In this document: positions 9,811 to 64,000 of the stretch, in pieces
Layout: every line of letters begins with the position of its first letter
How positions within the stretch are numbered: position 1 is the first letter of the stretch
Assembly (NCBI GenBank): GCA_965644295.1
Contig: CBFFRP010000204.1
Span: 12,354-76,353 of the forward strand
DNA from: Paraphysomonas bandaiensis
Lineage: Eukaryota > Protista > Chrysophyceae
DNA: 64,000 nucleotides
Reading direction: 5' to 3'
Notes under the pieces: generated by a model
Database searches by the model: none
What the model was told of the DNA's origin: nothing
What the model saw: the letters and a program-made list of their open reading frames with translations, nothing else
Translations under genes and position numbers: made by a program

Positions 9811-10445
9811 TCAAATTAGTCTGTCCGTACTCATATCGACTTCCTTTTTATCCGGACACACTTCATACGATTTGTGTTTGCATACATATCCGAAAAAATT
9901 AACTTTCTTAAAACCAAGCCAGCTCTTAGCCATTTTCAACTTGATGTTTCTCTCCAGACATCTGTCAATAACTCGTTCCAACTTATCATAAGCATCCTGG
10001 GGATCGTTGGCTAGTATTAGCATATTATCAAAGATAACGATAGCCCAGTCTGAAAAATCGGCAAATATCTCCCGAACAACCTCTTGCAGTACACCAGTAG
10101 CAGGCGCTATACCCTCTGGCATGAAATTAGGTGCAAACTGTCCCCATGGCGTTTGAATGGACAATTTTTCGGAAGTTTCCTCATCTAAAGGTATTTGATG
10201 AAACGCATTTGTAAGATCTATATCCAAATAATATGGAAAATTAATGATCTTGTCAAGTTCATGTTTGACATTGGGAATAGTGTAGTTTCCCACATGCATA
10301 TATATGATCATTTATCTTAACGTAGTCCCCAATCGAATATAAGGAGGTGTAGCCTTGGGCGCTACTACAAGACAAGAAGCCCATGGCGATCTACTCTTCC
10401 GGTAAAAATACCCACACAGACGACGAAATTCTTTCTCTGATGCTT
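9811..10445 (-). mobile_element. Ty3/Gypsy-type reverse transcriptase fragment
   Basis: SPWASCLVVAPK, YLDIDLTNAFHQIPLD, MPEGIAPA, LERNIKLKMAKS..VNFFGY. The catalytic YxDD position reads IFDN. Confidence 0.85.
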
Positions 10446-11440: not shown

Positions 11441-13022
11441 TTACATAGGCTGATACTGTGGGGGATACTGGAGGGGATAGTTAGGTGGTTGCATGGGAGG
11501 CGTTACCACGTGTTGCTGTGGCTGCATACTCAAGATGAAAGCCTCATACGTTTGAACCTGCAGCTCAGCTTCATTCCAGCGTGAAGTACGTTTACCTTGA
11601 TTAAGAAGAGCTTGCGCTTGCATGTATTGCAAAGGAGAGGAAAGGGTAGAAGAGCAGGGCCCAAGTGTCATTTGTTGTGCCGTTGGCTGCATGTGAGGGG
11701 TGTATGTGGGTGTCACAGGTGGATACCCGCCAGTGAATTGTTGAGAAGGAGTCCCAACAACTTGAGGAGTTGGTACAGGAGTGCTAGGCGTACTTGATGA
11801 TGCGCTACGCTGCAGCAGCTGGTCCTCAAGCAACTCATACTTTCTCTTTTGCTCCTCAAGCATCCGAACAAGATCTTTTTTCAAGGGAATTTTTGACTTC
11901 TTGCTTGTTGGTAAGTCATTATCAGTCCCACCGTCTTCTACCACACTTTCGTTCTTAACCTTCTTTTGGTCGTTCTTAACAGCACCCTGCTTTGATGCTC
12001 TCGTAGCAGCTGCACGCTTCGCTTTTGCCTTGCCCCTACACTTCTTATCATTGTGGACTGCTATTAGTGTGGACACCAGTGGTTCATGCTTAGTGTTTCT
12101 TTTCGGATTACGCCTCTTGCGGACCTTTTCGTTAGTCGCTGCAAGTTGCCCTTCGACAATTGGGTCAAAGCCATCAACAATTAGGTGGCCCTGCTCATCC
12201 TTGTTTGGTCCATTCTTCGAATCCCAGAATAAAGGTGTCAAGAACTTCACTAGATGAACTCCCATTTGGTCAGAATCAACTTCTTCATCAAGCAAATAGT
12301 CCAATTCGAGTACATGCTTACTGATTCCAGTCCACAAAATAACAACTTCGCTGTCGACGTCCCAAAGCACGACGTCGTAGCGAGGCCTGGCGCTCTTTGT
12401 CCGAAGGTAGCATAAGATAACGTACTCCTTTCCAGTTTTATAGTTCCGAGTGCGGACCATAGACAGGTGAATAATCTTGGTGCTCGTATTGAAATGAGCA
12501 CCAAGGACATAATAGTTGAAGAGCGGCGGGATAGACGCCATGACTTCGGGGTTTACGAAGAGTCGAAGTGTAGCTCCATCCATCTGAAACTTCTTCCGAG
12601 CGTAGCAGTGACTCCTCCCTGAGTACTCAATCGAAAAGGAAGCTTCAGTGGTCATAAAATCGTCAAGGAATTGATGGCCCCTGGTATTGCTCCTACCTTT
12701 CTTTGCGTCTGTTTTCTTGTTTGTTTGCAATGCATATGATGAATCACAAGCTGTGAATAAAAATAAGATCATTTGTTTGATTTCACTCACTGCACGACTC
12801 ACCATCTTCTGCTGTTTCTGTTTTATCATCATCAAATTCATCAAGGAATGCTGCAGCTGCATCCATAGCACACTGGGAGCACATCGAGGAGCTTACCCCT
12901 CTATCTGATGACCTAAACGTTTTGTTGCAAGAAGTGCAACAGACAGGACCCGCCGGCATTTCCTGAGAGCCACCACTGGAGTACATATCTAGAGTGTTGG
13001 AATATGAATCCAAGTCATCCAT
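11441..13022 (-). CDS. Transposon-borne hypothetical protein (N-terminal CxxC..CxxC, basic region, coiled coil, P/Q-rich tail)
   Basis: ORF 12783-13022 splices in frame to ORF 11441-12871 through a 40-nt intron 12790->12751 (GTGAGT...TTCACAG). Motifs CTSC...CSQC and KRRNPKR. Confidence 0.7.
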
Positions 13023-13310: not shown

Positions 13311-14516
13311 GACCCAAAGGTTGAACGTTTTGCAAAAGAGGAATGGACTCAACTGCAGTTCATTTTTGAAAGAGTCGAGCCCTCGGAGAGGTATGAGCAT
13401 GGCGTGAAAGCTACTTGTCGGCCGTATGCAAAAGATGAAGTGGTTGAGATTGTGGATGACCCTGACCAGGATTCGATCACCGGGCTGATCCCTCAGCTTA
13501 CCAAGGTCAACATTCAACCTGCAGATGAAGACCCTCCCTTCAATTTTTTATTGCGGTTACCACGAGAGGCTAAAGTATTTAAGCCGGAGCCTTTTGTTGC
13601 GATGAGTAGACAACATGCATTAGTTTGCTCAAATAAGATGATTCAATCCTACACTGGTAAGAATCCTGCTGTGGTGGAGAGTTGGACGCGGTGGAGAGAC
13701 AGTGTGTTGCCACAGTCTGATGATGCAGATGAATACGTAGCCGAGCATCCCATGTACATTCCCTTTAAAGACCAACTCTTCTCTGGTAATCCAGCTCCAG
13801 AGAGGAGTTCATTGGAAAGAGCAGATCATGCTACAGCCCTTGATGGCGTGACTCTTCCGCCAATGAGAGTTGTCGAGAGTACAACAAGCAGTCTGTGTCA
13901 CTCTGGGAAGCCCAAACCTTCTTCCAAAAAACACGAGACACCTGCTCGTCTTGTAGTCCGTGAGAGGGATGGTTCTGTGCCATCTCAACCAAAGGAGGCC
14001 CGGGCAGGAATTATTGTTACCCAGAAGACTCCAAGAAAAACGCAGACGAAGAAGGGGTATTCATCTGGCAAGAAGAAGGAGTCAGCGACAAAGAAGAAGG
14101 GCTCTTCTTTCAACTCTGACATGATTACTAGTGACGATATTGATGGTTTTGTTGCGGAAGTCGAAGACGAGGAAGAAGAGTCAGAATATGAGGAAGAAGA
14201 AGAGGAGGGAGTTCGAAACTTTGAACTTGGTGCTGTGATTCAGAACATGCATCGCCTGCGCGGGACTATCACAGCTTGTCATGACGATGGATCCTATGAT
14301 GTGAAGTACAAAGACGGTAGAACTGATGAGAATGTGTCTTGGAAGTTGCTGTTCCCTCCTCCGGCTCCTCGAAAGAGTACTTCTAGCAAGAAAGGTTCGT
14401 ATGAAATGATGGTTGTTCCGGATGACTACAAGTGGGTGGATACTGGGGCTGTTTCTTCCGCCATTCACTCTGTATCCGGCAAGCGCAAGCGATCGAATGT
14501 AAATTATAAAATGTGA
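13311..14516 (+). CDS. Transposon-borne protein, probably a 5'-truncated transposase C-terminus, with a Tudor-like domain
   Basis: The frame is open from 13311 (KEEWTQLQFIFERVEPSERYEHGVKATCRPY) with no upstream ATG. Acidic and basic tracts follow. Tudor/SH3-like segment RGTITACHDDGSYDVKYKDGRTDENV; C-terminal NLS KRKR. Confidence 0.55.
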   Translation, partial: DPKVERFAKEEWTQLQFIFERVEPSERYEHGVKATCRPYAKDEVVEIVDDPDQDSITGLIPQLTKVNIQPADEDPPFNFLLRLPREAKVFKPEPFVAMSRQHALVCSNKMIQSYTGKNPAVVESWTRWRDSVLPQSDDADEYVAEHPMYIPFKDQLFSGNPAPERSSLERADHATALDGVTLPPMRVVESTTSSLCHSGKPKPSSKKHETPARLVVRERDGSVPSQPKEARAGIIVTQKTPRKTQTKKGYSSGKKKESATKKKGSSFNSDMITSDDIDGFVAEVEDEEEESEYEEEEEEGVRNFELGAVIQNMHRLRGTITACHDDGSYDVKYKDGRTDENVSWKLLFPPPAPRKSTSSKKGSYEMMVVPDDYKWVDTGAVSSAIHSVSGKRKRSNVNYKM

Positions 14517-14589: not shown

Positions 14590-14801
14590 TATTATAGTTA
14601 ATAGTTATATATTATGGTAATTATAATGCTTGTATCGCTAATTTTATTTTGTAAATAATGAACAAATATAATGTTTTGAGCAGTAGAAACAAGCTACAAA
14701 CATGTTAGAAAGAATCTAGACACATAAAATACAATTTTTTAGGTAATAGCTTATTTGGCCTGGTTTTGACCATTTGACCTGGTCATCGCCTTCCTCCGAC
14801 T
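14590..14801 (-). repeat. Right TIR of the long-TIR transposon
   Basis: ...CCATTTGACCTGGTCATCGCCTTCCTCCGACT, the inverted copy of 11109-11320. Confidence 0.92.
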
Positions 14802-16738
14802 TTAGCACAACCATCACATAGGCCACCCGGTAAAGAAGTAGCATTCATCTCCGACTTCGTTAACTTAATACCCGTTACTAATTTTGACTGTACAGCTTTC
14901 TGTATGAGTCCAATTGAAGAATGTGCCAATCTCTTATGTGCTAGGGTTGCGAGTGGGCCTGAAGCAGTTGAAGCAAGGTGGGATTCGTCAATAGGAGTAC
15001 CGAGGTCTGTTAACGGAATTTCATATAGGCCTCCAACTCTCTTACCCTTTGATAGCAGTATTTCATCTTTATATATCTCAACTGATTGGTTTCCGAACAA
15101 GATTTTATACCCTAGGTCATCTAATTGGCTGATGGACACGAGTGTCCTTGAAGCATGGTCCACGTGCTTGCACTTGGGGATAATACCAAGTCTTCCATGT
15201 CCTGAAGAGGTCATAGTTGATCCTGACTTAGCTGTTTGAATGTCGGTGAGGCATTCCTCATAATTGGTGATGTATCCGGCTTCAGGTGTGATGGAGACTG
15301 TGCAGCCAGAATCAAGGGTCCCCATTCCGGCTTCTTGATCAAAAACGAAGTTCGTTTCGTCGTTTGTTGGATATCCGACTCCTCCGAAGTCTCGTCCTTT
15401 CTGTTGTAGTGGACCACTGTCTTCATAATCTGCAAACTGGTCGGATTCGTCGTTTTCAGTGCTCTGGTGGGTCTGGAATCTAACTTTTTTGAATTTCCTA
15501 CTGGTTGATTTGTTTCCAGAGGAATTCTTCATCTGTTGGATTCTTTCCCATGAGTGTTTGCATTCTGAAGCGATGTGTCCTTTTCCATCGCATCGGAAAC
15601 ACTTAATGTCCTTGTCAGCTCTCTTGTCATGTTTCGGTTTATTGGAACGGTTTCTGAAAGATGTCCCCTTTTTGCGCTTGGAATTCACTTTATTTCGGGA
15701 AAATGGGGGTTTTGAGGCTGCAAGCTGAATACTGTCGGTTTTTGTTTCTTCGTTGCTTGACAAGAGCATTCCAACAGACGAGCTTCCTAATCCGCGTAGT
15801 CTGCGTATGAGTGTTTTGTAGTCATCGATAGGGTGCATCTGCAGGTTGATCGCCAGTTCACGATACGTCATATTTTCTTTGGATACCAGGCCTTGTCGAA
15901 TGCGTGATATGAGATCTTGGTCACTTATCCGATGACCATAATTAATCAGCTTGTTTCGGAGCTTTTCGACAGCGTCAAGAAAGTTGATTATCGACTGACC
16001 TTTTTTGATTTTTATGCTCTGAAACTGGCCAATCAGATCGGTGATTACATCGTTAGTCGTTTTTTCTTTGAAGTGGTTGAGCAAGTCCGTCCAGGCGGTT
16101 TTACCGTCTCCATCGGGGACGTTCTCCAAAATCCCCTCAGCCTCTTCATTCTGACCAATGATAGAGCTTGCAATGACTGACCATAGGTAGTTATTACCTT
16201 CATCATAATATCGTTTCGCATCCTGATACTGTTCGAGTCGATACTGGTAGTCCTCGTCATCTGAGTTTTCTCCTGCTTCAGGCTCAATTGGGTGATCGTT
16301 CTGTAGAGTATAAACGATCTTAGGCTTGCTGATAGAACCATGCACGGCACTTCTTCTGCCACCTGGAGAAGTTCTTCGCATCGAATTTTGGCATTGAGTC
16401 CTTTCGCTTGTCGGTTGTCGAATCCGAGTCGGTTGAGTCGTAACTTGTAACTTTAACTGACATCTCGCTACCAAATAAAGAATTGATCTTTATAATAGTA
16501 AAACAATGTTGTGATTATTAGAGTGTAAGTAATGAACACGATAGAGTGAAAATTATGAATAACAATATAGAACGTACTATCATGCACAACGGAATAGTTA
16601 GAAGTGTAACTGATAATGACGACGTTATGATGACGATCACGTATCTTCGACAGATACTCTCTCTAATTCAGTTCATGGTATATTTCATTGAACATTATAA
16701 CTCACAGATACAATCATGTGTTAAGCTGAATCCTAATA
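14802..16738 (-). mobile_element. Ty1/Copia element 5' half: LTR, PBS, gag, protease, GAG-pre-integrase; truncated at the TIR transposon
   Basis: LTR 16476-16738. PBS TGGTAGCGAG at 16473-16464, gag ATG at 16463, one frameshift near 16330. Zinc knuckle CFRCDGKGHIASEC, protease LDSGCT, integrase HHCC motif HKRLAH...CDGC. Confidence 0.92.
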
Positions 16739-49259: not shown

Positions 49260-50196
49260 TACCTTAATATATAATATAAGACATACAAGTAGAGACGCCT
49301 GAACGATGAGTGTATCGAGTAGAGATACTGACAATTGGTTTGCAGTCCGGTTGAAACGTAACTAAACAAGCACGAGTGCAATGTCTGTGAATGCAGAAAA
49401 GTTCTGTCATTGAGTCATTGGTAGAAGAGAGAAGAGCGAAGAAGAACATACGACAACACCTGATAAATGATGCAGACCTATCCTCAAGTAGACCTGCTCA
49501 TGGGGAAGTTAAAGCAGATTAGTAATAATAATTCCTGGCTACGTGACCAAACCAGTGTGCTACCAAAAAGGGTAACCCTTTTTTAGGTGCACCTCAAGTG
49601 GCGTATAAAAACCCTGTTTCTATAATCAAAGACCTACCGGATGCGGTGACTGATATGGTTTCTACTGCGCAACAAAATTCCGATATCACATACTTAAGTT
49701 GATATGTCTAAGTACAGGTTCAGTCATGTGGTCTGTGCTTCCGGTATATGAGAACGTCTGTTCATCACCAAACTTCTATATCAGTGTTGCGCAAAAGTAT
49801 ACATCCTACTACACTTAATATGCTGTTGTTTCTGAAGCTAATCGACACTTGTGGCCGGATGCATGCATATTTCAATTAGTTTTGAAGGAATGAATGAATG
49901 TGGTGATGATGACTTCGCTGATGATGGCTCAGAGGTTATGTAGAGGAGAATAATGTTTATCTGAGCTGTAGGTAGTCTTCGCTTGACAGCGTAGTGGGTT
50001 TGGTTTATTATGGGATTTTAATGGCTAGTGTTGACAAAGGAATATACACATGTAATTAACTACTGTTTAGTGATACTAATATTGCAATAGTACTGTACTG
50101 TACTGTTAGACCGGTTAAAAAAATATTGGAATATTATTGATAGGGCTCTATCCTCTATCTTAAGATAGTATTGCAATATATCGTTACCTAGCCCGG
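49260..50196 (+). mobile_element. Degraded hAT remnant
   Basis: 49270-49400 is homologous to 54995-55140. The right end TTGCAATATATCGTTACCTAGCCCG mirrors the left end CAGGGCTAGGAAAC at 54665. Confidence 0.5.
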
Positions 50197-52384: not shown

Positions 52385-52476
52385 AATAAATAATAAGTTA
52401 CAGAATCTTACTTAGCGACAAAGTTGAGGTCAAGGCAAAAGAACTGTAAACAATGCAGCAAATCATAGTAAACAAA

Positions 52477-53429
52477 CATACATGCATACATACATACATA
52501 CATACATACATACATACATACATACATACATACATACATACATACATACATACATACATACATACATACATACATACATACATACATACATACATACATA
52601 CATACATACATACATACATACATACATACATACATACATACATACATACATACATACATACATACATACATACATACATACATACATACATACATACATA
52701 CATACATACATACATACATACATACATACATACATACATACATACATACATACATACATACATACATACATACATACATACATACATACATACATACATA
52801 CATACATACATACATACATACATACATACATACATACATACATACATACATACATACATACATACATACATACATACATACATACATACATACATACATA
52901 CATACATACATACATACATACATACATACATACATACATACATACATACATACATACATACATACATACATACATACATACATACATACATACATACATA
53001 CATACATACATACATACATACATACATACATACATACATACATACATACATACATACATACATACATACATACATACATACATACATACATACATACATA
53101 CATACATACATACATACATACATACATACATACATACATACATACATACATACATACATACATACATACATACATACATACATACATACATACATACATA
53201 CATACATACATACATACATACATACATACATACATACATACCTACATACATACATACCTACATACATACATACATACATACATACATACATACATACATA
53301 CATACATACATACATACATACATACATACATACATACATACATACATACATACATACATACATACATACATACATACATACATACATACATACATACATA
53401 CATACATACATACATACATACATGCATAC
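52477..53429. repeat. (CATA)n microsatellite, about 950 bp
   Basis: About 235 nearly perfect units, with two CCTA variants near 53241 and 53257. Confidence 0.99.
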
Positions 53430-53540
53430 GTACTCGGCATGTATAAATATGTGTACAGCAATAGATGTGCATAGCTGCATATTGAGTGTGGAGTTAAGTT
53501 CTAGTCGTCATAATAGGCGCAATTTCACCATAAACCCCTC

Positions 53541-54458
53541 ATGTCTCTGATGCATTCTGCTGTCAGACTCCCCCGTCGCTCATGTGTATCGGGTGTGTCG
53601 GTGTGTGTGCGTGGGGTGTGTGGGGTGGTGTCGTATGACAGATATGGAGAGGAGGCCGCCCCTCACACAGCTGTGTTCGTTCACGGTGTCCTCGGATCGA
53701 AGAAGAACATGCGCACACCTGCAAAGGAGTTCCTCGCTCGTAACCCATCATATTCATGCGTATCAGTGGACCTCAGAGGACACGGGATGTCTCATGATAT
53801 GGAGGGAGAGAACTCCATTGACCAGTGTGCCCGCGACCTGCACAATCTCTTCCACCATCTCAATATTGAGGCTCCGGATTTTCTCTGTGCTCACAGTTTA
53901 GGTGGAAAAGTCGCTCTGAAGTACTTGGACTTTGTGCATGAGAATGACCTCAGCTTTCCGACTAATACGTGGATATTGGATTCCCTTCCCGGCACATACG
54001 ATTTTTCGGATCTCAAACCCGACAGCCAATCAGTCAGCTATGTAATTAGGTGTTTAGATCAGATACCCGTACCATTTGAGTCTAGGAAGTGGGCGCTGGG
54101 GAAATTACTGCAGCTAGGCGTAGCGACCCCTATCGCACAGTGGCTCTGCACTAGTGTTGTAGATACACCCAATGGATCCAAGTGGGCCTTTAATATTGAC
54201 GCCGTTAAATCCATATTTAAGGACTTTTGTGTAGTTGATATGTGGCCATTTGTTGAGCAATACGATGGCAATGCTACAATACACTTTGTGCGAGCTGGTA
54301 GACAGAAGAAATGGACCCCTGAAGTGCTAGCTAGATTCAATTCTCTCCCGCAGTATAATAGAAACATTATGGTTCACACTATGCCGAATGCTGGACACTG
54401 GTTGCATTCGGAGGACTTGTCGGGTCTCTTAAAGATAATTCAAGAACACAATAGGTAA
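53541..54458 (+). CDS. Alpha/beta hydrolase, ABHD11/YbfF-like, probable mitochondrial presequence
   Basis: FVHGVLGS, VDLRGHG, AHSLGGKVA (nucleophile Ser), AGHWLHSE. Confidence 0.88.
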   Translation: MSLMHSAVRLPRRSCVSGVSVCVRGVCGVVSYDRYGEEAAPHTAVFVHGVLGSKKNMRTPAKEFLARNPSYSCVSVDLRGHGMSHDMEGENSIDQCARDLHNLFHHLNIEAPDFLCAHSLGGKVALKYLDFVHENDLSFPTNTWILDSLPGTYDFSDLKPDSQSVSYVIRCLDQIPVPFESRKWALGKLLQLGVATPIAQWLCTSVVDTPNGSKWAFNIDAVKSIFKDFCVVDMWPFVEQYDGNATIHFVRAGRQKKWTPEVLARFNSLPQYNRNIMVHTMPNAGHWLHSEDLSGLLKIIQEHNR

Positions 54459-54664
54459 TGCTGCGTATTCGTAATAATAAAGTAAGCTTTATTGTTGCAT
54501 CCGTGTCAGTATACCCCACTGATTACGACTATTATCAGTACTCTAAGTTGATGAAACAATAATAGTGCAATAGTGACGGTAGTCTCTCTTTGATAAGCAG
54601 CTAAAGAAATATCTATAGTACTAGTTGCAACTCCTTCTCATGTAAAAGTGCTAATACATGAGTT

Positions 54665-55545
54665 CAGGGCTAGGAAACAATATATTGAATTGCAATACAT
54701 TGTACAATATATTGCAATATATTGTAAAATATATTGATTGTTCGACCGGCCAAAATTTCCATCAATATTGTTTCTGTTATAGTGGCTCACAATATATTGC
54801 AATCAATATTATGATAGTCATATAAGAGAAGATCCTTAACTGTAGGGTAAAAAATACAAGTCCATGTATACAAATATCCGGAAAATAAGTAAAAAGCCTA
54901 TTTTTATGTAAATTTCTGTTTTTTATGTATCGCCAGCTCAAACAATACTCTACACCTCTCTACATGTATGTACAGTACTTCTCTTAATAGAGTATATATA
55001 TTCTATAGTGATAAGAAGAGACATCTGAACGATGAATGCATACAGAAGTAGAGATATTTACCGCTGTTTTTGGAGTTCGGTTGAAGGTGAACGAAACAAG
55101 CACGAATACAAAGTCTGTGGGCGCATACGAGTGCAGAAGATATCGAATGGCTACAACAACTTGAAGAACCACACATCGTCACATGTATGATGGTGAGTGG
55201 GAAGATTCCATGAAGAAGTATTTACGGGTTGTCTGCACCAATGGTCCCATGGATGCTTTTGTTTTCCAACCTTCGGACAAAGCAAAAACATTTTTGAGAG
55301 TGGGTAGAGTGAATAATGCTGATAATGTTTGCATTATTGTTGAGTTTTGCATTGGGGACAACTGGGCTACAAACAGAAAGCTGGCAAACGATTCCGGTAA
55401 TACCTTTGTTTGAGTAAAATCGTCGTCTGTTATAACTGTTTAATGGTGTATAGGTGTGCCCCTAGTTGGATGTCATTTCATCGACTTAACCTTGCGGTCA
55501 ATGAACTCCTCGGGAGCAAAGAGAAGCGAAATAAGGGAGGAGTAA
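54665..55545 (+). mobile_element. hAT element left end and degraded transposase 5' part, truncated by the viral element
   Basis: TIR CAGGGCTAGG. BED-finger remnant CGRIRVQKISNGYNNLKNH, then GPMDAFV and HRLNLAVNELLG. Confidence 0.7.
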
Positions 55546-55667
55546 AAAAAAAGAGAGAGGAGAGGGGGATTTCACCCCCTGTACAGTGTTAACCGTGACC
55601 ATGAAAACTATTAATATACACCAACATTGCCCCTATGGTATTACTCTTTATCACTTACAATAATAAT

Positions 55668-55865
55668 GGACACTTTGAAGGACACTTTCAAGGACATATT
55701 ATTTTAATACAAATATATATTATTACAATATTGTAACTGTATATACTTATATATGGACACTTTGAAGGACATTTTTAAGGACATTTTTAACAAAAATATA
55801 AAAAAAACACAAAAAAAATGTTGTGAATATAAAATTTAACAAAAAATGTCCACAAAAATGTCCAC
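55668..55865. repeat. 12-bp-periodic GGACA repeats (two forward triplets, one inverted pair)
   Basis: GGACA at 55668/55680/55692 and 55755/55767/55779; TGTCC at 55847/55859. Confidence 0.8.
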
Positions 55866-55901
55866 TCAAAATACACAAAACACTATAAATACAATAATAC
55901 A

Positions 55902-57270
55902 TAGACTAAACCATAGTCTGTAACCATAGTCTGTAACCAATGATATAAAGTGGAATTATTACAACACTGAGCAAACCAATCACGGTACCCCTCTATTCCA
56001 TAGCTTCCTTAGATAGAGTATCAGCATGTGTGTACAATTCACTAGCTAACGAGTTACAGAACTATAATAATCGATACTATTTGTATCTATCGAACAAATA
56101 CTACAATACGCATGGAATGTATTTTGCGAACCACAGCCGAACGCAAAAGAGCTACACTTTCCTCTTTCGCGTAGATGCCCTCCACTACCATGCCGATGAG
56201 GCCATATCCTCTCTTTAATCTGCGAATTGAATACATCACATGCTGCAAACATCTTACCGTGGTCGGAGCACACAGGCACAGAATTGGTGGTAGACTTCGT
56301 AGGTGATCTATGATAAGCATTGAACAAGGCGGTTTATTTCTTGCCATCCTTGTTGGTATAAGAATGAACTAGGGGTTCTTTACGCTGTTGATTCCACACT
56401 CCATTCCACTGTCCTCGCTTATTGACACCTTCACGAACTTCACGAGTGAGTGCTTGGAAGCGCTGTGGGTTCTAAGCTCCAATATCTTACTTTCTTCCTT
56501 GCAAGCCCTTCTCTTGCAGCTTCATCAAGATAATACGAATCGACTATCAAATAAAAATTTTGTTGTCGCAATTTCCATGAATCGTATGCCAAGAGAATCA
56601 ATCCTTGGATAGCAATCCCTAAAGTGGTCTCAGTACCATATAAGTTGCTCTCGCAAAGGTCGCGAATGACGTATTACACCTCTTGGGGCATGTTGTTCTC
56701 CATAAATTCGAATCCAAATTGCAAGAGGCTTATATATAGAACACAATGAAAGCAAAATTACTGCTCCACAGTCATATCTCAAGTCGGCAGGGTCAATATC
56801 CTGGGCAATTTTCGTCACAAGAGATACTGTAACAAAACGCACGAATATCTTGAGGAAGCTGACAGTGCGCAAATTAAACGTAGGTTATCGATCTGCATCA
56901 ACCGTATGAGGCAGATGGTATGACTCATTGGCCAAATGAATTGGTCTCCAGCGCCCAGTGATCTCTATTTCCTGAGCACGCTCTGAGCTTCATGTCGCGT
57001 CATCTTCATCGTTGCAAAGAGAACCTGATTTGCGCTTTCGAAATGCCATGTCAAACTATGAGTGAATGGGGGATATAATGAACTTACCAGCACATTAATT
57101 TGACCTGCAATTCGCTGACTCAACACTGTGATTGTGAAGTGTGAAGTGTGGTTCACACTGTCTGATTTCGACTGATTTTATGACAGTTATTTTATGTATG
57201 AAAATCGACGTTATTTTCAGTTTTTTTTCAGTTTTTTTTTCAGTATGGTTGCAGACTATGGTTTAATCTA
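55902..57270 (-). mobile_element. Degraded TIR DNA transposon with piggyBac-like transposase remnants
   Basis: 27-bp TIRs TAGACTAAACCATAGTCTGTAACCATA / TATGGTTGCAGACTATGGTTTAATCTA. Fragments SFLKIFVRFVT and GKMFAACDVFNSQIKERIWPHR...QNTFHAY. Confidence 0.6.
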
Positions 57271-57445
57271 ACAACACTACATATATTACATTGACGGACA
57301 GAAACCAAACTTAAACACCGAACAACCACACCAGATAGACGGAACAACAGACCTAATTACCCTATATATAGACATGCCGTATTTTACTCCCTATTTTACA
57401 TATATAAGAATATAAAATAATAAAAAAATATATAGTTATATTATA

Positions 57446-57877
57446 ATGTCAAAAGAATTAAAATATTTTAGTTGTTGTGAAAATGTTGATTCCGAGCGTA
57501 ATGGTAAATACTACTACAAACATAAAAAGTACATTCATAATGATCCATTTGACTGTCTAAAACATAAGTTAAATAGGCCAGCTGATGAAGTCAATGATAT
57601 AATAAGCAAACGGTTTGAAAAGGGTTTTTTAAGTAGCAATTTTTTTACTTTTAGACCAGTAAACAATACACCTGAATGTTACGATTGGCATGAAAAATTT
57701 ATTATTAAATCAGGTTTAAGAGAAAACGAATGTGATGATGTTCAAGATGAATTTAATCTTAAAAATAAGTTTTGGGAATCAGTTGTTTATATCATTGAAA
57801 ATGACGGCGATAAAGAGAAAATGGAAACGGATAAGTGGGTATATTCAATGAATATTATTGATAAACTAACGCATTAA
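57446..57877 (+). CDS. PLV hypothetical protein (paralog A)
   Basis: 143 aa; clearly paralogous to 58277-58726 (KYFSCCENVD, DCLKHKL, YIIENDG..KM.T.KW). Confidence 0.8.
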   Translation: MSKELKYFSCCENVDSERNGKYYYKHKKYIHNDPFDCLKHKLNRPADEVNDIISKRFEKGFLSSNFFTFRPVNNTPECYDWHEKFIIKSGLRENECDDVQDEFNLKNKFWESVVYIIENDGDKEKMETDKWVYSMNIIDKLTH

Positions 57878-57955
57878 AAATACTATAATTTATTTCAATT
57901 ATTACATATGTAAAAATATAAAATAATTAAAAAAAATATATAGTCATATATTATA

Positions 57956-58240
57956 ATGAGTGAGTATTTATTAAAGTTGAAAGGTGAAGTATACAGTATT
58001 AGAAAAACACATATGCCTAAAATTCAGGAAGAGATAAGAAATTTAGACAGAGAAATAGAAGACATGAAAATTACATTATCAGAACTTCAGAAACAAAAGA
58101 AAGAGTTACAAGTAGAGCTATTAAATGAACGGCAATTAATCATATATGAAAATAAAGACGAAGATAAAAGGACTGAATTATTAAGAAAATATGATTTTCT
58201 ACACGGTGAATATCGCAGTGATTCTGTAGGATGGAAATAA
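57956..58240 (+). CDS. PLV small coiled-coil protein
   Basis: 94 aa with heptad pattern; upstream block shared with the 57446 gene. Confidence 0.7.
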   Translation: MSEYLLKLKGEVYSIRKTHMPKIQEEIRNLDREIEDMKITLSELQKQKKELQVELLNERQLIIYENKDEDKRTELLRKYDFLHGEYRSDSVGWK

Positions 58241-58276
58241 AATATTATAATAATATAAATATATGCTATTATTATA

Positions 58277-58726
58277 ATGCCACACACAGATATAAAATAT
58301 TTCATATGTTGTGAAAATGTTGATGATGAAGCAAAAGGTGAATGCGTGGATGATAACGATATAATATATAAACATCGTGATTGTTCTGACTGCAAAAAGC
58401 ATAAATTAAGTAAAACAGTTGATGAAGTTCAGGATGTAATACATAGACGTTTTAAAAAACGTTTTGATGTTGTCAGGTTACATTATCCCTATGATGGTGC
58501 ATTAAAAAATTTAAATGATTGGGTATTAGAATTTATTAATGATAATAATTTAAAAGAAAGAAAAAACGAAGTTATTACTAAAGATGGCCGTTATTTATGG
58601 GATAAACTCTTAAATGCAATTGAATACATCATAGAAAACGACGGAAATAAAAGAAAAATGAAAACAAAAAAATGGAAATATTCATTAAATGTTGTTGACA
58701 AACTAATGGATGATGATGATGATTGA
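58277..58726 (+). CDS. PLV hypothetical protein (paralog B)
   Basis: 149 aa; KYFICCENVD, HRDCSDCKKHKL, YIIENDGNKRKMKTKKW. Confidence 0.8.
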   Translation: MPHTDIKYFICCENVDDEAKGECVDDNDIIYKHRDCSDCKKHKLSKTVDEVQDVIHRRFKKRFDVVRLHYPYDGALKNLNDWVLEFINDNNLKERKNEVITKDGRYLWDKLLNAIEYIIENDGNKRKMKTKKWKYSLNVVDKLMDDDDD

Positions 58727-58747
58727 TAAACTGATAAGAAGGTAAAT

Positions 58748-58790
58748 TAAGGGATAAAAATCCCTAAATTTTCGGGGAAATTATCCCTTA
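58748..58790 (+). terminator. Hairpin downstream of a viral ORF (candidate transcript 3'-end signal), copy 1
   Basis: Perfect outer stem TAAGGGATAA/TTATCCCTTA plus inner stem TCCCT/GGGGA. Confidence 0.45.
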
Positions 58791-58910
58791 GATGTAAAAT
58801 ATATAAATATATTATGTGATATACTTATATATGGTGAATATCGCAGTGATTCTGTAGGATGGAAATAAAATATTATAAAAAAATGCAATTGATAAACTGA
58901 TAAGGTAAAT

Positions 58911-58953
58911 TAAGGGATAAAAATGCGATAATTGTTCGCGAAATTATCCCTTA
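58911..58953 (+). terminator. Hairpin, copy 2
   Basis: Same outer stem with a different inner stem GCGA/TCGC. Confidence 0.45.
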
Positions 58954-58993
58954 GATGTAAAATATATAAATATATTATGTGATATACTTATAT

Positions 58994-59227
58994 ATGGACG
59001 GCCTAGAATGGGAAATAAGCTATGATAATTATGAATTTCCAAAGAAAAATATTATAGACTTAGACAGAGTGATTAACTTAGACACACCAAAATTAAACAG
59101 AAATAATAATATAGATACAGACATGTTGACTTATGATTTTGCAGAAATAAAAATATCTAATAATAATGTTAATGGAGAAAATACAGATTGTTCTAAACAG
59201 CAAGACAGCAAACCAATACCTAAATAA
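58994..59227 (+). CDS. PLV small hypothetical protein
   Basis: ATG follows a TATATATG viral-type context; overlaps the start of the minor capsid gene. Confidence 0.5.
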   Translation: MDGLEWEISYDNYEFPKKNIIDLDRVINLDTPKLNRNNNIDTDMLTYDFAEIKISNNNVNGENTDCSKQQDSKPIPK

Positions 59228-59903
59228 TAAAACTACTGATTGTATTTTTATATTACCAAAGATAGATGTTAAACGACGTCATAAAGCCTATATATCAGTA
59301 ATTGATGCCTCTATCCCATATTCATTTTATAATGTTAATTCAACCAATAACACACTGAATTATACATTAAATAGTATCCCATATTCACTTACAATTACAA
59401 AAGCCAATTATAATATTAGAACTTTAATAAGTTTTTTACAGTCCAATTTAGAGCCAGGATTTACAATAACTTATAACTCATCAACTAATAAATTACAATT
59501 TACCCATAGTACTTATGATTTTTCTTTTTCAAATACTTCAACCTGTTTTGAATTATTAGGATTTGAAGATAATACAACCTATTATTCAGATTCATTAATA
59601 TTATTATCAACAATTGGTATAAATTTATTTACAGTAAGAAACGTTTTAATAGCATCGTCTAATTTTGTTTTAAATAATATAAATAGTGCTACACCTAATA
59701 AAGCTTCTATTATTACCTCTGTCCCTGTTGATGTTAATGCAGGATCTATTATTAATTATAAAAACATTAATAATATTAAGAGCTTAGTACATGATATACA
59801 TAATATAAATACTTTACATGTCCAATTATTAGACCAAGACGCAGATGTATTGGAATTAAACGGTTTACATTGGTCTTTAAATTTATTATTAACTATTGAA
59901 TAA
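59166..59903 (+). CDS. PLV minor capsid (penton-like, single jelly-roll) protein; probable start 59172
   Basis: IVLNSK, DASIPYSFYNVNSTNNTL, CFELLGF, IITSVPVD and QLLDQD...LNGLHWSLNL fit the pattern of PLV/virophage-type pentons. Lies just upstream of the MCP. Confidence 0.78.
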   Translation: MLMEKIQIVLNSKTANQYLNNKTTDCIFILPKIDVKRRHKAYISVIDASIPYSFYNVNSTNNTLNYTLNSIPYSLTITKANYNIRTLISFLQSNLEPGFTITYNSSTNKLQFTHSTYDFSFSNTSTCFELLGFEDNTTYYSDSLILLSTIGINLFTVRNVLIASSNFVLNNINSATPNKASIITSVPVDVNAGSIINYKNINNIKSLVHDIHNINTLHVQLLDQDADVLELNGLHWSLNLLLTIE

Positions 59904-59933
59904 AAAATATTTCTCTCAATATAGTATATATAC

Positions 59934-60374
59934 ATGTCAAAACTAGGCAAAAAGCTAAATCGTAAATTTCGTAAACTAGGTCGTAAGGCCGATCACAGAA
60001 TACATAAACTAGGACAAAAAACACACGACGTATTAGACAAGGTTCAGAGTGGAGTAAATAAAGGTCTTGATAAATCGGCAAAAGCAATTAACGTAGCAGA
60101 TAAAATATTAGGCGTTGGCGATAAAACTATACACGCTATTAATGAAGCAGGATTAAATACAATGCCCGTTGTTGGATCAGCATCTAGACTATTGGAAGCA
60201 GGATTACACGAAGGGCATAAAGGTGTGCATAAGCTACATAAGCTCCATAATAAAGCCGATAAACACAGTAAAAAAGCATTTAAAAAGGCTCATAACGCAG
60301 GTAATAAATTAGAAAAACACAACACAAGAAAAGCTTTAGCTAAGTTAACACAAGATGATAGCACATTTATATAA
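59934..60374 (+). CDS. PLV basic Lys/His-rich protein, candidate virion core protein
   Basis: 146 aa, strongly basic termini (KLGKKLNRKFRKLGRK; HKGVHKLHKLHNK), located between the two capsid genes. Confidence 0.7.
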   Translation: MSKLGKKLNRKFRKLGRKADHRIHKLGQKTHDVLDKVQSGVNKGLDKSAKAINVADKILGVGDKTIHAINEAGLNTMPVVGSASRLLEAGLHEGHKGVHKLHKLHNKADKHSKKAFKKAHNAGNKLEKHNTRKALAKLTQDDSTFI

Positions 60375-60394
60375 ATTATATTTTATTATACTAT

Positions 60395-60422
60395 AAAAAA
60401 TATTTATCTATTTATAGTATAT
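60395..60422 (+). promoter_or_regulatory. Candidate viral late promoter (AT-flanked TCTA)
   Basis: TCTA at 60407, 16 nt before the MCP ATG. The same spacing occurs at 59156 before ATG 59172. Confidence 0.45.
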
Positions 60423-61781
60423 ATGTCAGGATTACCAAAAAACGTATTATACACAAATAATATAAATTCAAGTTACGCGCGTAATTATCAGAATAATATA
60501 GCTCCACAAAATGGTTTGGGGCCATATGGTCCAGGAGAAACAATAATTATTAATATTCCTACCGGTCGTAATCTCGTAATGTCTGGTGCTGATTCACTTT
60601 TAAAATTAAGCTTGATTGCTAAAAATTCAGCGGGAGCTGCTGCCCAGTTCATCAGACTGGATAAGGCCGGTATTCATTCCCTAATATCTAGGGTGCGTGT
60701 GTTTCATGGCTCTACTTTACTTTCAGATATCCAAAATTATAATAATCTAGTTGGTCAGTTAATGGCTTTGCAACAATCTAATGACGCATATACGAATAAG
60801 CATTCAATTTTATCAGGCACAGAAGCGCATAACATCCTTCATGCTACTGTAAATGCCTCGAGAAATATTACCGTTGGCGAAGGTTTGGGCAATTATGCCA
60901 CAATTGCTGCAAGTGCCAGCACAACTAAAAGATATTATACGATACCAATAATGAATTTTTTAAGCTACAGTGATAAATATATCCCACTTTTCGCAATGAC
61001 CGGCGCGCCTTTACGTCTAGAGATAACTCTCGTAAACAATGCCTTAGAGGGTCTAAATTGTGCTAGGGCATTGGATGCAACCGACCCTATAATAGTTAAT
61101 GATGTTGAATATGTTTGTAATTTTATGGAGCTATCAGATGATGCAATGGGTACAATTAATAAGGCTTCAAATGGTGGACCTATAAAATGGGTTGTACAAG
61201 ATTATAGAAATTATTCACACACTGCTAATATTTCTCCTAATGTTGAGCTTTCCGTGCCTGTGCCTGCTAAATTCAACTCGTTGCGGTCTCTCTTTTTTAG
61301 TATGCGCAGTAAGCATGGTGGTGCAGTTACTTTTTTCCCTCTGTCTTCAAATCACTTCGGCCTAGAGTCATATACTGTTAGATTAGGTAGTAAAACAGTA
61401 CCAACTAAAGCGCCTAGCTCCACGCCTGAATTTTTCGGCGAATTGGTCAGAGCAATTGGTAGCATAAGTGATTTAAACCATGAACCGAGTATTAATATTC
61501 ATAGTTATAACGTTCAAAATCCTGTCGCAAGTACCGAAACAGCAGCAGATGCTAAAGGGGTTCCGTCATCTTCCAATTTTTACTTAGGTTTAGATTTGGA
61601 AAGTTACAGCAGCTCAGGTATGGAAACAGTTTACCAAGGCTATAATTCTAGCACTGATGACATATTTTTTAACCCTCGTTTTAGCTCATCCGCTAGTAAT
61701 GTGACCGCACGCATAGACACATACGCTTATTTTGATCAAGTTATTTTGATTGAGAACGGATTTGCAACATTGCAATATTAA
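60423..61781 (+). CDS. PLV major capsid protein (double jelly-roll)
   Basis: 452 aa, beta-rich. GETIIINIP, SLISRVRVFHGSTLLSDIQNYN, KYIPL...PLRLEITL, SLRSLFF, FYLGLDLESYS...QGYNS and TYAYFDQVILI match the pattern of PLV MCPs. Confidence 0.87.
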   Translation: MSGLPKNVLYTNNINSSYARNYQNNIAPQNGLGPYGPGETIIINIPTGRNLVMSGADSLLKLSLIAKNSAGAAAQFIRLDKAGIHSLISRVRVFHGSTLLSDIQNYNNLVGQLMALQQSNDAYTNKHSILSGTEAHNILHATVNASRNITVGEGLGNYATIAASASTTKRYYTIPIMNFLSYSDKYIPLFAMTGAPLRLEITLVNNALEGLNCARALDATDPIIVNDVEYVCNFMELSDDAMGTINKASNGGPIKWVVQDYRNYSHTANISPNVELSVPVPAKFNSLRSLFFSMRSKHGGAVTFFPLSSNHFGLESYTVRLGSKTVPTKAPSSTPEFFGELVRAIGSISDLNHEPSINIHSYNVQNPVASTETAADAKGVPSSSNFYLGLDLESYSSSGMETVYQGYNSSTDDIFFNPRFSSSASNVTARIDTYAYFDQVILIENGFATLQY

Positions 61782-61866
61782 ATTTATAAAAAACCTTTAG
61801 ATTATTAAAAAAATAAAAAATTAAAAAATTTATTATTTAAAAAAATAATATATATTGTGTATATTA

Positions 61867-63360
61867 ATGAGTACAACAGAGAATTTCCAAGAGTTTGATT
61901 TAGAACACCTTGATAACCTGACCTTTGAACAGTCTAAAGCTTATGTAACAAGTTATTTTTTTCCACTTACGAACGGCATGCATGCTCACAGGTCAGGAAT
62001 TAAATCATTTAGCATTATGAAACACCGTGAAATTAAAGAAACTTTTTTTAATAGAATGGATAGAAGAATAAGTAAATATTATTTCAATGAATTTAAAGGG
62101 CTTCGCACTATTGTTTTTGAACTAAATAAACCTTTATTGCCTGATAAAAAGAAATTAAATTTATGCGCGCAGTATATTCACGACTATAAGCCATATGAAG
62201 ATTTTGACAATAAGAAGACTAAAGAAGGCGTTCAAGTATTTTTAACATACATAAAAGAAATTTTAGCCTCTAATAATGTGGATCAATATGATTATTTATT
62301 AAAATGGTTTGCTAATATGATAAAAGGGAATAAAAACGAATCTATTATATACTTAAAAGGACCTCAAGGTATAGGCAAGTCCACTATATCCCAATTTTTA
62401 CATTCTTTCGTTCTTGGTCGTGATTTATGTTTAGAAGCTGGCGCAGATGTTTTGACTAGTCGTTTTAATTCTGGATTGTCCGGGAAATTATTCGTATATT
62501 TTGAAGAAATAGAAAAGCTTACACGTGCAGATTGGGACGCTGTTAACACTAAATTAAAAAGATACAGTACGTCCGACGTGTACATGATAGAAAAAAAGGG
62601 AGAACCAACGATACAAGTCAAGAACCTTAACAATTATTTAATTAATTCAAATGTTGATAATTTAAAAGAAGATAACGGCCGACGTATATTTATATGTGAT
62701 ATAAGTTGTAAAAAACGGAACGATATGCATTATTTTGAAAATGTAAGAAAGAAATGTTTTAATAATGAGGTAGGAAATGCTTTTTATTGTTACTTGATGG
62801 ATTATAACACTAAAAATTTTTATAGTCAAAACTTTCCAATTACACAAAATAAATTAGACGCATATTGTAAAAGACTAAATAACATTGAGACGTTTTTAAA
62901 AGATGAATTTATATTGAAAAGGTTGCCTATTGATTGTGTTCCTGTTAGTGATCTTCACAATCATTATATTCAATATTGTGAAGAGAAAGCAGTTAGAAAC
63001 ATAAAGCATAAAATAGAATTTAATAAGATGATGACAGAATTAAATTTTAATCACACGCGCAAGGTTATAGGTAAATCTAAAAAAAATGTATATAATATTT
63101 CATTAGAAGAATTAGATAAAGTTGCTGAATCTTTGCACTGGATCCACGAATTAGACGAGTATGACGATGTAGAGATTGAAGATAATACCAACACTATTAA
63201 AGGCGCCATTAAAAAGATTAGTAATAAACAAAGCGATAAACAAAGCGATAAAACAGATGATGATACAGACACAGATACAGATGATGATGAAGATGAAACA
63301 CCCCGTGTAAGTCAGAAGACAGTGAAAGATATAATGAAAACTTACGGAATAAATATTTAA
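61867..63360 (+). CDS. PLV superfamily 3 (D5-like) helicase/NTPase
   Basis: Walker A GPQGIGKS, Walker B VYFEE, motif C INSN, arginine finger GRR, helical YLLKWFA region, wHTH-like C-terminus and acidic tail. Confidence 0.88.
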   Translation: MSTTENFQEFDLEHLDNLTFEQSKAYVTSYFFPLTNGMHAHRSGIKSFSIMKHREIKETFFNRMDRRISKYYFNEFKGLRTIVFELNKPLLPDKKKLNLCAQYIHDYKPYEDFDNKKTKEGVQVFLTYIKEILASNNVDQYDYLLKWFANMIKGNKNESIIYLKGPQGIGKSTISQFLHSFVLGRDLCLEAGADVLTSRFNSGLSGKLFVYFEEIEKLTRADWDAVNTKLKRYSTSDVYMIEKKGEPTIQVKNLNNYLINSNVDNLKEDNGRRIFICDISCKKRNDMHYFENVRKKCFNNEVGNAFYCYLMDYNTKNFYSQNFPITQNKLDAYCKRLNNIETFLKDEFILKRLPIDCVPVSDLHNHYIQYCEEKAVRNIKHKIEFNKMMTELNFNHTRKVIGKSKKNVYNISLEELDKVAESLHWIHELDEYDDVEIEDNTNTIKGAIKKISNKQSDKQSDKTDDDTDTDTDDDEDETPRVSQKTVKDIMKTYGINI

Positions 63361-63409
63361 AAAAATAAAAAATAATTTATTTAAAAAATTAATATATAAA
63401 TATATATTA

Positions 63410-63664
63410 ATGAGAGATAAATTTATAGTAGAAGTATATGATAATAATAATAATCTGATTACATCACAAAACTTTACATCCTATAAGGCAATAGCACAGG
63501 AATACGATATACAATATTCAGAAGCTAGGAAACTTAACGCTTTATGTGAGTCACGTACAACATGTAAATACTTACATCCATCATTAAAGCGACTGATTAA
63601 CAGAATAAAAATTTATGATATTAATAATATAAATAATTATGATATTAAAAAAATAAAAATTTAA
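63410..63664 (+). CDS. PLV small protein, possible NUMOD1/HTH-like DNA-binding domain
   Basis: VEVYDNNNNLITSQNFTSYKAIAQEYDI; shares its upstream motif with the helicase gene. Confidence 0.6.
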   Translation: MRDKFIVEVYDNNNNLITSQNFTSYKAIAQEYDIQYSEARKLNALCESRTTCKYLHPSLKRLINRIKIYDINNINNYDIKKIKI

Positions 63665-63696
63665 TTATTTAAAAAATTAATATATAGTTTATATTA

Positions 63697-64000
63697 ATGG
63701 ACAAATATAAATATGAAAAGATTGATGAGAAGGACTTTGAAAACTCAGTTGAAATCACGATCAGATTTAGACACAGAAAGAAAGGCAAAGAATTAGACGT
63801 TCCCGATATGTACTTTTTACATGATATGATTGAGGAAAACTTACCCGAAGATGCCAATACAATGGTTAGAGCGTTAAACGGTCACAGATACTTTACATTT
63901 AAAGGGTATAACAGCTATAATATAAGGGTTCAGGATTTTGAAAATTATTATAAAGGCACAGTTGAGGAAATGGATAAATTTGAGAAGTTTGAATTTATTG
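63697..64000 (+). CDS. PLV hypothetical protein, partial (runs off the window)
   Basis: Open frame MDKYKYEKIDEKDFENSVEITIRF... preceded by TATTTAAAAAATTAATATATA...TATATTAATG. Confidence 0.7.
   Translation, partial: MDKYKYEKIDEKDFENSVEITIRFRHRKKGKELDVPDMYFLHDMIEENLPEDANTMVRALNGHRYFTFKGYNSYNIRVQDFENYYKGTVEEMDKFEKFEFI

Follow-up and report, generated by a model that had tools for sequence, protein, structure and literature searches.

Left part of a probable Polinton-like virus beside a decayed DNA transposon in a contig of the protist Paraphysomonas bandaiensis

Introduction

Polinton-like viruses (PLVs) have genomes of 14–40 kb with terminal repeats at both ends, and their integrase is either a tyrosine recombinase or an rve-type enzyme. 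Maverick/Polinton elements and Gossevirus (Polintoviricetes) carry a protein-primed DNA polymerase B (pPolB), an rve integrase and a cysteine protease, and virophages (Maveriviricetes) carry a virophage-type major capsid protein (MCP) and a cysteine protease. To date, more than 35,000 endogenous MCP hits have been reported in 462 protist genomes, many of them in intact elements, with 33–104 MCP copies per chrysophyte genome (Bellas et al. 2023, PMC10120064). Here, we describe such an element at the end of a 64,000-nt stretch of contig CBFFRP010000204.1 from Paraphysomonas bandaiensis. This stretch is referred to as the window, and all features are given in window positions. The region from 57.3 kb to the window edge is, in our judgement, quite probably the left part of a PLV, likely a recent insertion beside an old, broken DNA transposon in a marine protist chromosome. 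The element is a further representative of the known class of endogenous PLVs.

Overall organization of the element

The element runs past the window edge at 64,000, so that about 6.7 kb of it is visible. This part contains ten open reading frames (ORFs), all on the + strand from 57446 to the window edge, without introns or internal stops. The coding density of 57446–64000 is 90%, and its GC content is 29% vs 41% in bases 1–52,000. The GC content of third codon positions is 0.15–0.37 in the nine viral ORFs measured and 0.45–0.51 in five host ORFs. A similar AT-rich stretch lies upstream of most of the ten viral ORFs. The MCP and the penton are untruncated, since their lengths agree with those of the closest homologues (median 449.5 and 243 aa).

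A preliminary description of this DNA had reported ten co-oriented, intron-less, AT-rich open ORFs, and the ORF list, GC content and coding density agree with it. Its calls of an MCP, a penton-like protein, a basic protein and a superfamily 3 (SF3) helicase are likewise upheld by profile and fold evidence. The start that it placed at 55550 is not confirmed: none of the ten ORFs lies in 55550–57445, and a decayed transposase sits within the range it had assigned to the virus. The element is therefore likely smaller than was claimed. Its description as an intact, possibly reactivatable provirus is not supported either: the right part lies outside the window, no right end or target-site duplication is in view, and the ATPase is absent from its usual slot.

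Capsid proteins and related loci

The MCP (60423–61781, + strand, 452 aa) is predicted to adopt a double jelly-roll fold. Scoring of 7,997 candidates yielded 408 homologues, and the model predicted with a 120-row alignment has a pLDDT of 91.8 and a pTM of 0.89. With this model, Foldseek retrieved the MCPs of PBCV-1 and an iridovirus (E 1e-18), as well as giant-virus MCPs among predicted viral structures. Superposition with VIA-align gave a Z of 28.1 for the PBCV-1 capsid (rmsd 8.0, 346 positions aligned) and of 26.9 for the faustovirus MCP (rmsd 4.1, 356 aligned). Sputnik (Z 18.8) and mavirus (Z 17.4) ranked below the giant-virus capsids, and the top 16 rows were all viral double jelly-roll proteins. 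The MCP profile found no match among PDB sequences, no PHROG family was found for the capsid proteins, and phage records gave no match.

The penton, or minor capsid protein, is a predicted single jelly-roll of 245 aa when read from 59166 (59166–59903, + strand); its closest homologues, of 243 aa, favour a start at 59172. Its model (pLDDT 92.3) is most similar to the mavirus penton, which fills the top six Foldseek rows (E 1.6e-10, TM 0.51), followed by the pentons of Sputnik and adenovirus. In total, 121 homologues were found, the best with 99% identity.

Between these two genes lies the gene for a basic, Lys/His-rich protein of 146 aa (59934–60374, + strand), with homologues at the equivalent place in related loci. 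It is 48% identical to the syntenic ORF of L001 (JACKZZ010008927.1), a metagenome contig that is the closest relative of the element, and it is recognized at E 4e-18 by a profile built from 7 proteins of related loci. This protein is likely to pack the DNA as a core protein. MCP trimers and the penton would then build a small icosahedral virion around a DNA core formed with the basic protein.

The MCP alignment provided 81 related loci, namely L001 and the best 80 of 127 contigs from IMG/VR (L002–L081). Penton homologues are present in 80 of them and A32 ATPase homologues in 77. These contigs are AT-rich, and besides the penton and ATPase they carry GIY-YIG nucleases, lipase-like proteins and varied helicases; this gene plan is the one described for PLVs in PMC7805220. 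Five of them (L002, L003, L005, L006 and L021), 15.7–18.8 kb long, end in terminal inverted repeats. The MCP fold had been chosen beforehand as the test on which the earlier assignment could fail, and the penton region 59172–59903 had been singled out for a fold check. The similarity of the MCP model to the PBCV-1 capsid and of the penton model to that of mavirus bears out both, and the two folds, together with the PLV gene sets at the 81 related loci, substantiate the identification as a PLV.

A FastTree phylogeny with midpoint root, built from 57 MCP sequences (the window MCP, 33 of the 120 listed homologues and 23 of the 81 loci), places the window MCP with P0001. There was no named PLV reference (TSV/TVS, PgVV, GKS2, GKS3 or Chi) among the tree tips and the matches listed, and no group label for this MCP was found in the supplements of PMC7805220 and PMC10120064.

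Some related loci have peculiarities of their own. L012 and L013 belong to one IMG/VR contig, in which two capsid modules mirror each other within a perfect palindrome of 15 kb; this contig is likely an assembly artefact. In L063, L066, L070 and L079, the MCP gene is split at one common position (pieces of 105 and 272 aa), and interruptions also occur in L014, L021 and L037; the insert is possibly a self-splicing intron or another type of insertion. L090 and L091, two further PLV contigs that encode an MCP, a penton and a basic protein, were binned into two bacterial GTDB metagenome-assembled genomes, likely by contamination.

SF3 helicase and the predicted replication module

The helicase gene (61867–63360, + strand) encodes 497 aa with a DUF5906 domain (Pfam E 1.6e-17), a weak Pox_D5 match, a D5-like winged helix, and a Walker A motif at residue 165. 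No primase domain was found. An N-terminal extension of more than 30 aa is absent in 59 of the 60 best homologues, which indicates that the enzyme is a stand-alone SF3 helicase. One homologue (34%) comes from the chrysophyte Epipyxis in EukProt.

The helicase alignment led to 24 further contigs, none of which has a match to the MCP or penton of the window. The neighbours of the capsid genes are thus not those of the helicase, in line with the mosaicism described in bioRxiv 10.64898/2026.10.13.758929 and 10.64898/2026.06.19.733378. The MCP relative L021, as well as L094 and L111, each combine a stand-alone SF3 helicase with an rve integrase recognized by Pfam and with a PolB-like ORF. In L098, the helicase is followed by a homologue of the last ORF of the window (ORF 63697) and then by a PolB-like ORF. 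DUF5906 has been described as particular to the mavirus group (pMVRE group 1), which is marked by DUF5906 together with pPolB and rve (PMC13215967). Given these loci and this domain, we predict from sequence that a pPolB and an rve integrase are encoded beyond 64,000 as a mavirus-style module; 4 of 25 loci, i.e., the 24 helicase contigs and L021, underlie this prediction. In such a module, the SF3 helicase would serve a protein-primed polymerase during replication, and the insertion would be due to the rve integrase.

Fourteen of the helicase contigs (L093, L095, L097, L099, L101–L106, L109 and L112–L114) contain the window-type helicase together with a conserved ORF of 620–800 aa. They probably represent a different virus group that uses the same helicase. 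The size of this ORF, which occurs in 14 of the 24 helicase loci and could not be named, would be in keeping with a virophage MCP. Gene cluster c20 is, by its motifs only, a candidate tyrosine recombinase.

Probable age and distribution

Five full-length ENA proteins differ from the penton by 2–5 residues (identity at 238–241 of 243 and at 242 of 245 positions). Two small ORFs are found as exact sequences in metagenome assemblies. One is a coiled-coil-like ORF of 94 aa (57956–58240, + strand), present on 19 ENA contigs; the other is an ORF of 84 aa (63410–63664, + strand) with a faint NUMOD1 hint (Pfam E 0.09), whose cluster has 11 ENA members and whose exact sequence is on 2 contigs. The penton identity of 98–99% and these two identical ORFs support the earlier suggestion that the insertion is recent. 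The MCP is less close, with 93% identity to a partial protein and 79–80% to the nearest full-length ones, and the helicase shares 71% with its nearest homologue. Near-identical small ORFs and penton next to a less conserved MCP and helicase suggest a recombining population.

A listing of shared sequence words for 54,500–64,000 contains 24 sequencing runs. Nine DNA or unlabelled runs from four organisms and five studies hold 0.58–0.68 of the words; two of the five studies are likely one data set filed twice, and one run may be the source. Five marine metagenomes hold 0.41–0.51. Since the part left of the first ORF makes up only 0.31 of this stretch, a share of about 0.27 or more of its words must be viral in the nine runs, if words are evenly sampled.

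The ATPase position and the small ORFs

The element departs from the related loci in that its packaging ATPase is absent from the usual place. Of the 81 loci, one contig is a duplicate and two lack a penton in that orientation; among the other 78, 73 have this gene within 2 kb upstream of the penton. In the window, which cuts the element at 64,000, a profile of 79 ATPases from relatives finds none.

In L001, the ATPase gene stands directly before a small ORF of 105 aa that lies between ATPase and penton. Its homologue in the window is an ORF of 77 aa (58994–59227, + strand; 55% over 40 aa, E 1e-11). The ATPase place itself is occupied by local duplications (58739–58997): 58739–58834 matches 58902–58997, and 58825–58884 matches 58197–58256, each at 92%. 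Further to the left are two ORFs of 143 aa (57446–57877, + strand; no Pfam match at the cut-off) and 149 aa (58277–58726, + strand; no usable match in an Atlas search). They are paralogues, with 41% identity over 142 aa (E 1e-22).

The element may also be a defective, rearranged copy that lost its packaging ATPase, perhaps when the duplications at 58.7–59.0 kb arose, and that forms no virions unless another copy supplies what is missing. The usual ATPase position in the relatives, the duplicated promoter and gene fragments that fill it here, and the shortening of the ORF at 58994 speak for this explanation. Yet, gene order is not fixed: 5 of the 78 relatives have no such gene in the 2 kb that precede the penton, and in L029 it is located downstream of the MCP. 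Every frame in view is open and full-length, and the small ORFs at the left end have exact counterparts in metagenomes. We therefore regard a defective copy as unlikely. As for the gene itself, it has probably been moved to the part beyond the window edge; that the element has lost it is the lesser, still appreciable possibility.

A further interpretation is a currently active mosaic, in which a PLV capsid is joined to a mavirus-type replication module, the virus occurs in near-identical form both in seawater and in several marine protist species in culture, and packaging is borrowed from a helper because the element has no ATPase of its own. We consider this combination improbable. If it were true, host jumping and reactivation by giant viruses could be tested directly in a cultured host for which a transcriptome exists.

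Left boundary and the decayed transposon

Returning to the recent PLV insertion as the preferred interpretation, its left end can be narrowed down by the flanking sequence. The last clear host gene before the element (53541–54458, + strand) encodes an alpha/beta hydrolase of 305 aa (Pfam Abhydrolase_6, E 1e-10). Exact copies of this protein occur in JGI, Logan and MMETSP sources, and its cluster representative is in EukProt; its presence in MMETSP indicates that the host, or a strain close to it, has been cultured. Downstream of it, a dispersed repeat (55013–55119, + strand) has a second copy in the host part at 49287–49389 (blastn, 75% over 107 nt, E 2e-12), which marks 55.0–55.1 kb as host DNA.

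This is followed by an AT-rich repeat block (55560–55960, 28% GC) with tandem units of 12–13 nt and a hairpin, and then by the remnant of a piggyBac-like DDE transposase (56001–57037, − strand). The remnant has 227 homologues at E ≤ 0.001 (best 5.5e-35; best homologue 47%). A profile of 39 full-length homologues covers positions 12–172, 270–298 and 298–442 of 457 in three frames; about 100 profile positions are missing through a central deletion, and the aligned parts contain 5 stops as well as frameshifts. The piggyBac label derives from DDE_Tnp_1_7, which matches weakly in 5 of 13 homologues scanned (E 0.005–0.024, all under the cut-off). PiggyBac elements have terminal inverted repeats flanked by TTAA. 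Of the 14 TTAA sites in 55300–57500, no two form a matching terminal pair, and only an inner inverted repeat of 27 nt was found, with a left arm at 55902–55928 and a right arm at 57244–57270 (93% complementary), which flanks the remnant (56,001–57,037) on both sides.

The GC content is host-like (42%) in 55960–57210 and drops to 28% from about 57210. The likely left end of the virus, with the promoter of the first ORF, is therefore placed at 57271–57445 by the GC fall and by repeat likeness, as 57369–57434 is 76% similar to the region upstream of the second ORF. Most simply, the virus would start at about 57.27–57.4 kb, beside the old host transposon. The heavy decay of the transposase, compared with viral genes that are 98–100% identical to environmental copies, implies that the transposon is not younger than the virus.

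The AT-rich block is likely an end of the decayed transposon, but it is ambiguous and could be a viral terminus. In that case, the element would start at about 55,560–55,590 and enclose the transposase remnant in an extended terminal region on its left side. The block is indeed as AT-rich as the virus, and its tandem units and hairpin resemble a terminal repeat. In endogenous mavirus-like elements (EMALEs), terminal repeats can be as long as 2.3 kb, and insertions of retrotransposons occur (PMC8547959). Three scans of viral contigs for the terminal motifs gave 0, 8 and 0 exact matches. However, the transposase, with its 5 stops, frameshifts and deletion, is far more decayed than the viral genes, and the 27-nt inverted repeat brackets it as transposon ends would. 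The highest word share of any run, 0.68, also fits a start at 57.3 kb (0.71 of the stretch) better than one at 55,550 (0.89), as far as a share in which the position of the held words is unseen can tell. Accordingly, we give this longer version of the element little credence.

The host part of the window is eukaryotic, with WD40, JmjC, FHA-RINGv, Hsp70 and kinase genes and copia remnants. The Epipyxis homologue of the helicase and the MCP copy numbers of chrysophyte genomes (PMC10120064) hint weakly at a stramenopile host, perhaps a chrysophyte. Pieces of decayed retrotransposons lie at 6302–8502, 9811–10311 and 14783–16489, with copia gag and zinc knuckle identified by Pfam and reverse-transcriptase-like frames by eye. 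In the same transposon-rich region, two long frames (11441–12892 and 13311–14516) have no Pfam match. A single frame at 2993–5071 joins a glycosyltransferase 61 to a JmjC/cupin domain. Directly upstream of the hydrolase gene, 52472–53433 is a near-perfect tetranucleotide array of about 240 copies, which gives rise to long but spurious ORFs in both orientations. At 54682–54816, there are short palindromic and tandem repeats, rich in AT and with a similar-looking motif near 50080–50180, that are possibly the end of a small non-autonomous transposon.

Evidence against the proposed integrated PLV and its predicted mavirus-type module

Several results weigh against the interpretation as a whole. 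The virus is contiguous with host genes in the assembly, and the assembly is the sole evidence for its integration into the host chromosome. With a highest share of 0.68, no run demonstrably carries flank and virus together. RNA runs hold only 0.07–0.10 of the words and give no evidence of expression. Profiles of ATPase, integrase, polymerase and lipase found no match in the window. Likewise, no cysteine protease, pPolB or rve integrase was found there; for the protease, the relatives were covered by one representative each of their largest gene clusters.

The predicted replication module has its own difficulties. A PolB-like ORF lies within the fetched DNA in only 4 of the 25 loci of this helicase type. 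This ORF family, called PolB-like by its motifs only, has no match in Pfam, NCBIfam or PDB sequences. ORF 63697 (63697–64000, + strand, 101 aa visible, cut by the window edge) was considered as the N-terminus of the polymerase and rejected, since its link to the PolB N-terminus is not significant (hhalign probability 2.5%). The one homologue found for it is that in L098 (38% over 53 aa, E 2e-10), and a direct scan of viral contigs gave no relative.

A late promoter with the CroV/mavirus motif TCTA, examined as a sign of helper dependence, was also rejected. The motif stands upstream of the MCP and penton of the window but is not enriched in the relatives: it precedes the MCP in 10 of 75 (shuffle mean 11.4), the penton in 10 of 79 (10.8) and the ATPase in 15 of 73 (11.6). 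Only gene cluster c3 exceeds its shuffles (24 of 111 vs a maximum of 20). EMALE types other than type 4 also lack the motif (PMC8547959), so that the negative result leaves room for another helper.

As another alternative, the assembly could be chimeric, with host sequence joined to a virus that is free or episomal, or to a different copy in the genome. No run holds the whole stretch, and PLV regions are known to misassemble (PMC10120064). Still, this is the least credible of the alternatives, because host and virus share no repeat at the join, near-identical virus occurs in DNA runs of organisms and not only in metagenomes, and the contig crosses the 960-nt tetranucleotide array, which suggests long reads.

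Significance

By analogy with endogenous mavirus and Tetraselmis PLVs, we lean slightly toward an element that would remain silent up to infection of the cell by a compatible giant virus; such latency and reactivation are known from EMALEs (PMC8547959) and Tetraselmis PLVs (bioRxiv 10.1101/2025.10.09.676808). An inducible defence against giant viruses, a role for which endogenous PLVs are candidates, has so far been shown for Cafeteria virophages and Tetraselmis PLVs. The element provides a host link to a large environmental MCP family of at least 408 relatives. With the host or a near strain in culture and near-identical virus in marine metagenomes, it can serve as a model but is hardly a surprise. 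Its weight would increase if the ATPase were truly absent, or if the four organisms of the runs were different species.

Comparison with known systems

The giant-virus-triggered awakening of an integrated PLV, as in Gezel-14T/PgVV and the reactivating Tetraselmis PLVs (bioRxiv 10.1101/2025.10.09.676808), is comparable by analogy only. With pMVRE group 1 and mavirus (PMC13215967; PMC8547959), the element shares the DUF5906 helicase and a penton model closest to the mavirus penton, and in 3 loci rve and PolB-like genes stand beside this type of helicase. It differs from them in an MCP model nearer to giant-virus capsids and in the lack of protease, polymerase and integrase in the window; moreover, TCTA is not enriched in its relatives.

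Most IMG/VR relatives have primase-SF3 fusions or other helicases, in contrast to the window. L001, in which a long ORF instead of a helicase follows the MCP and an ATPase lies upstream, nevertheless has the same order of small ORF, penton, basic protein and MCP, with 61% identity in the MCP and 70% in the penton. The endogenous PLVs of protists (PMC10120064; bioRxiv 10.64898/2026.06.19.733378, Aquintoviricetes-type) differ from the element in that it has no ATPase beside the penton. Yet, they share with it a double jelly-roll MCP, a penton and a helicase within a low-GC island, and the relatives of the element are 15–21 kb long with terminal inverted repeats, as in PLVs.

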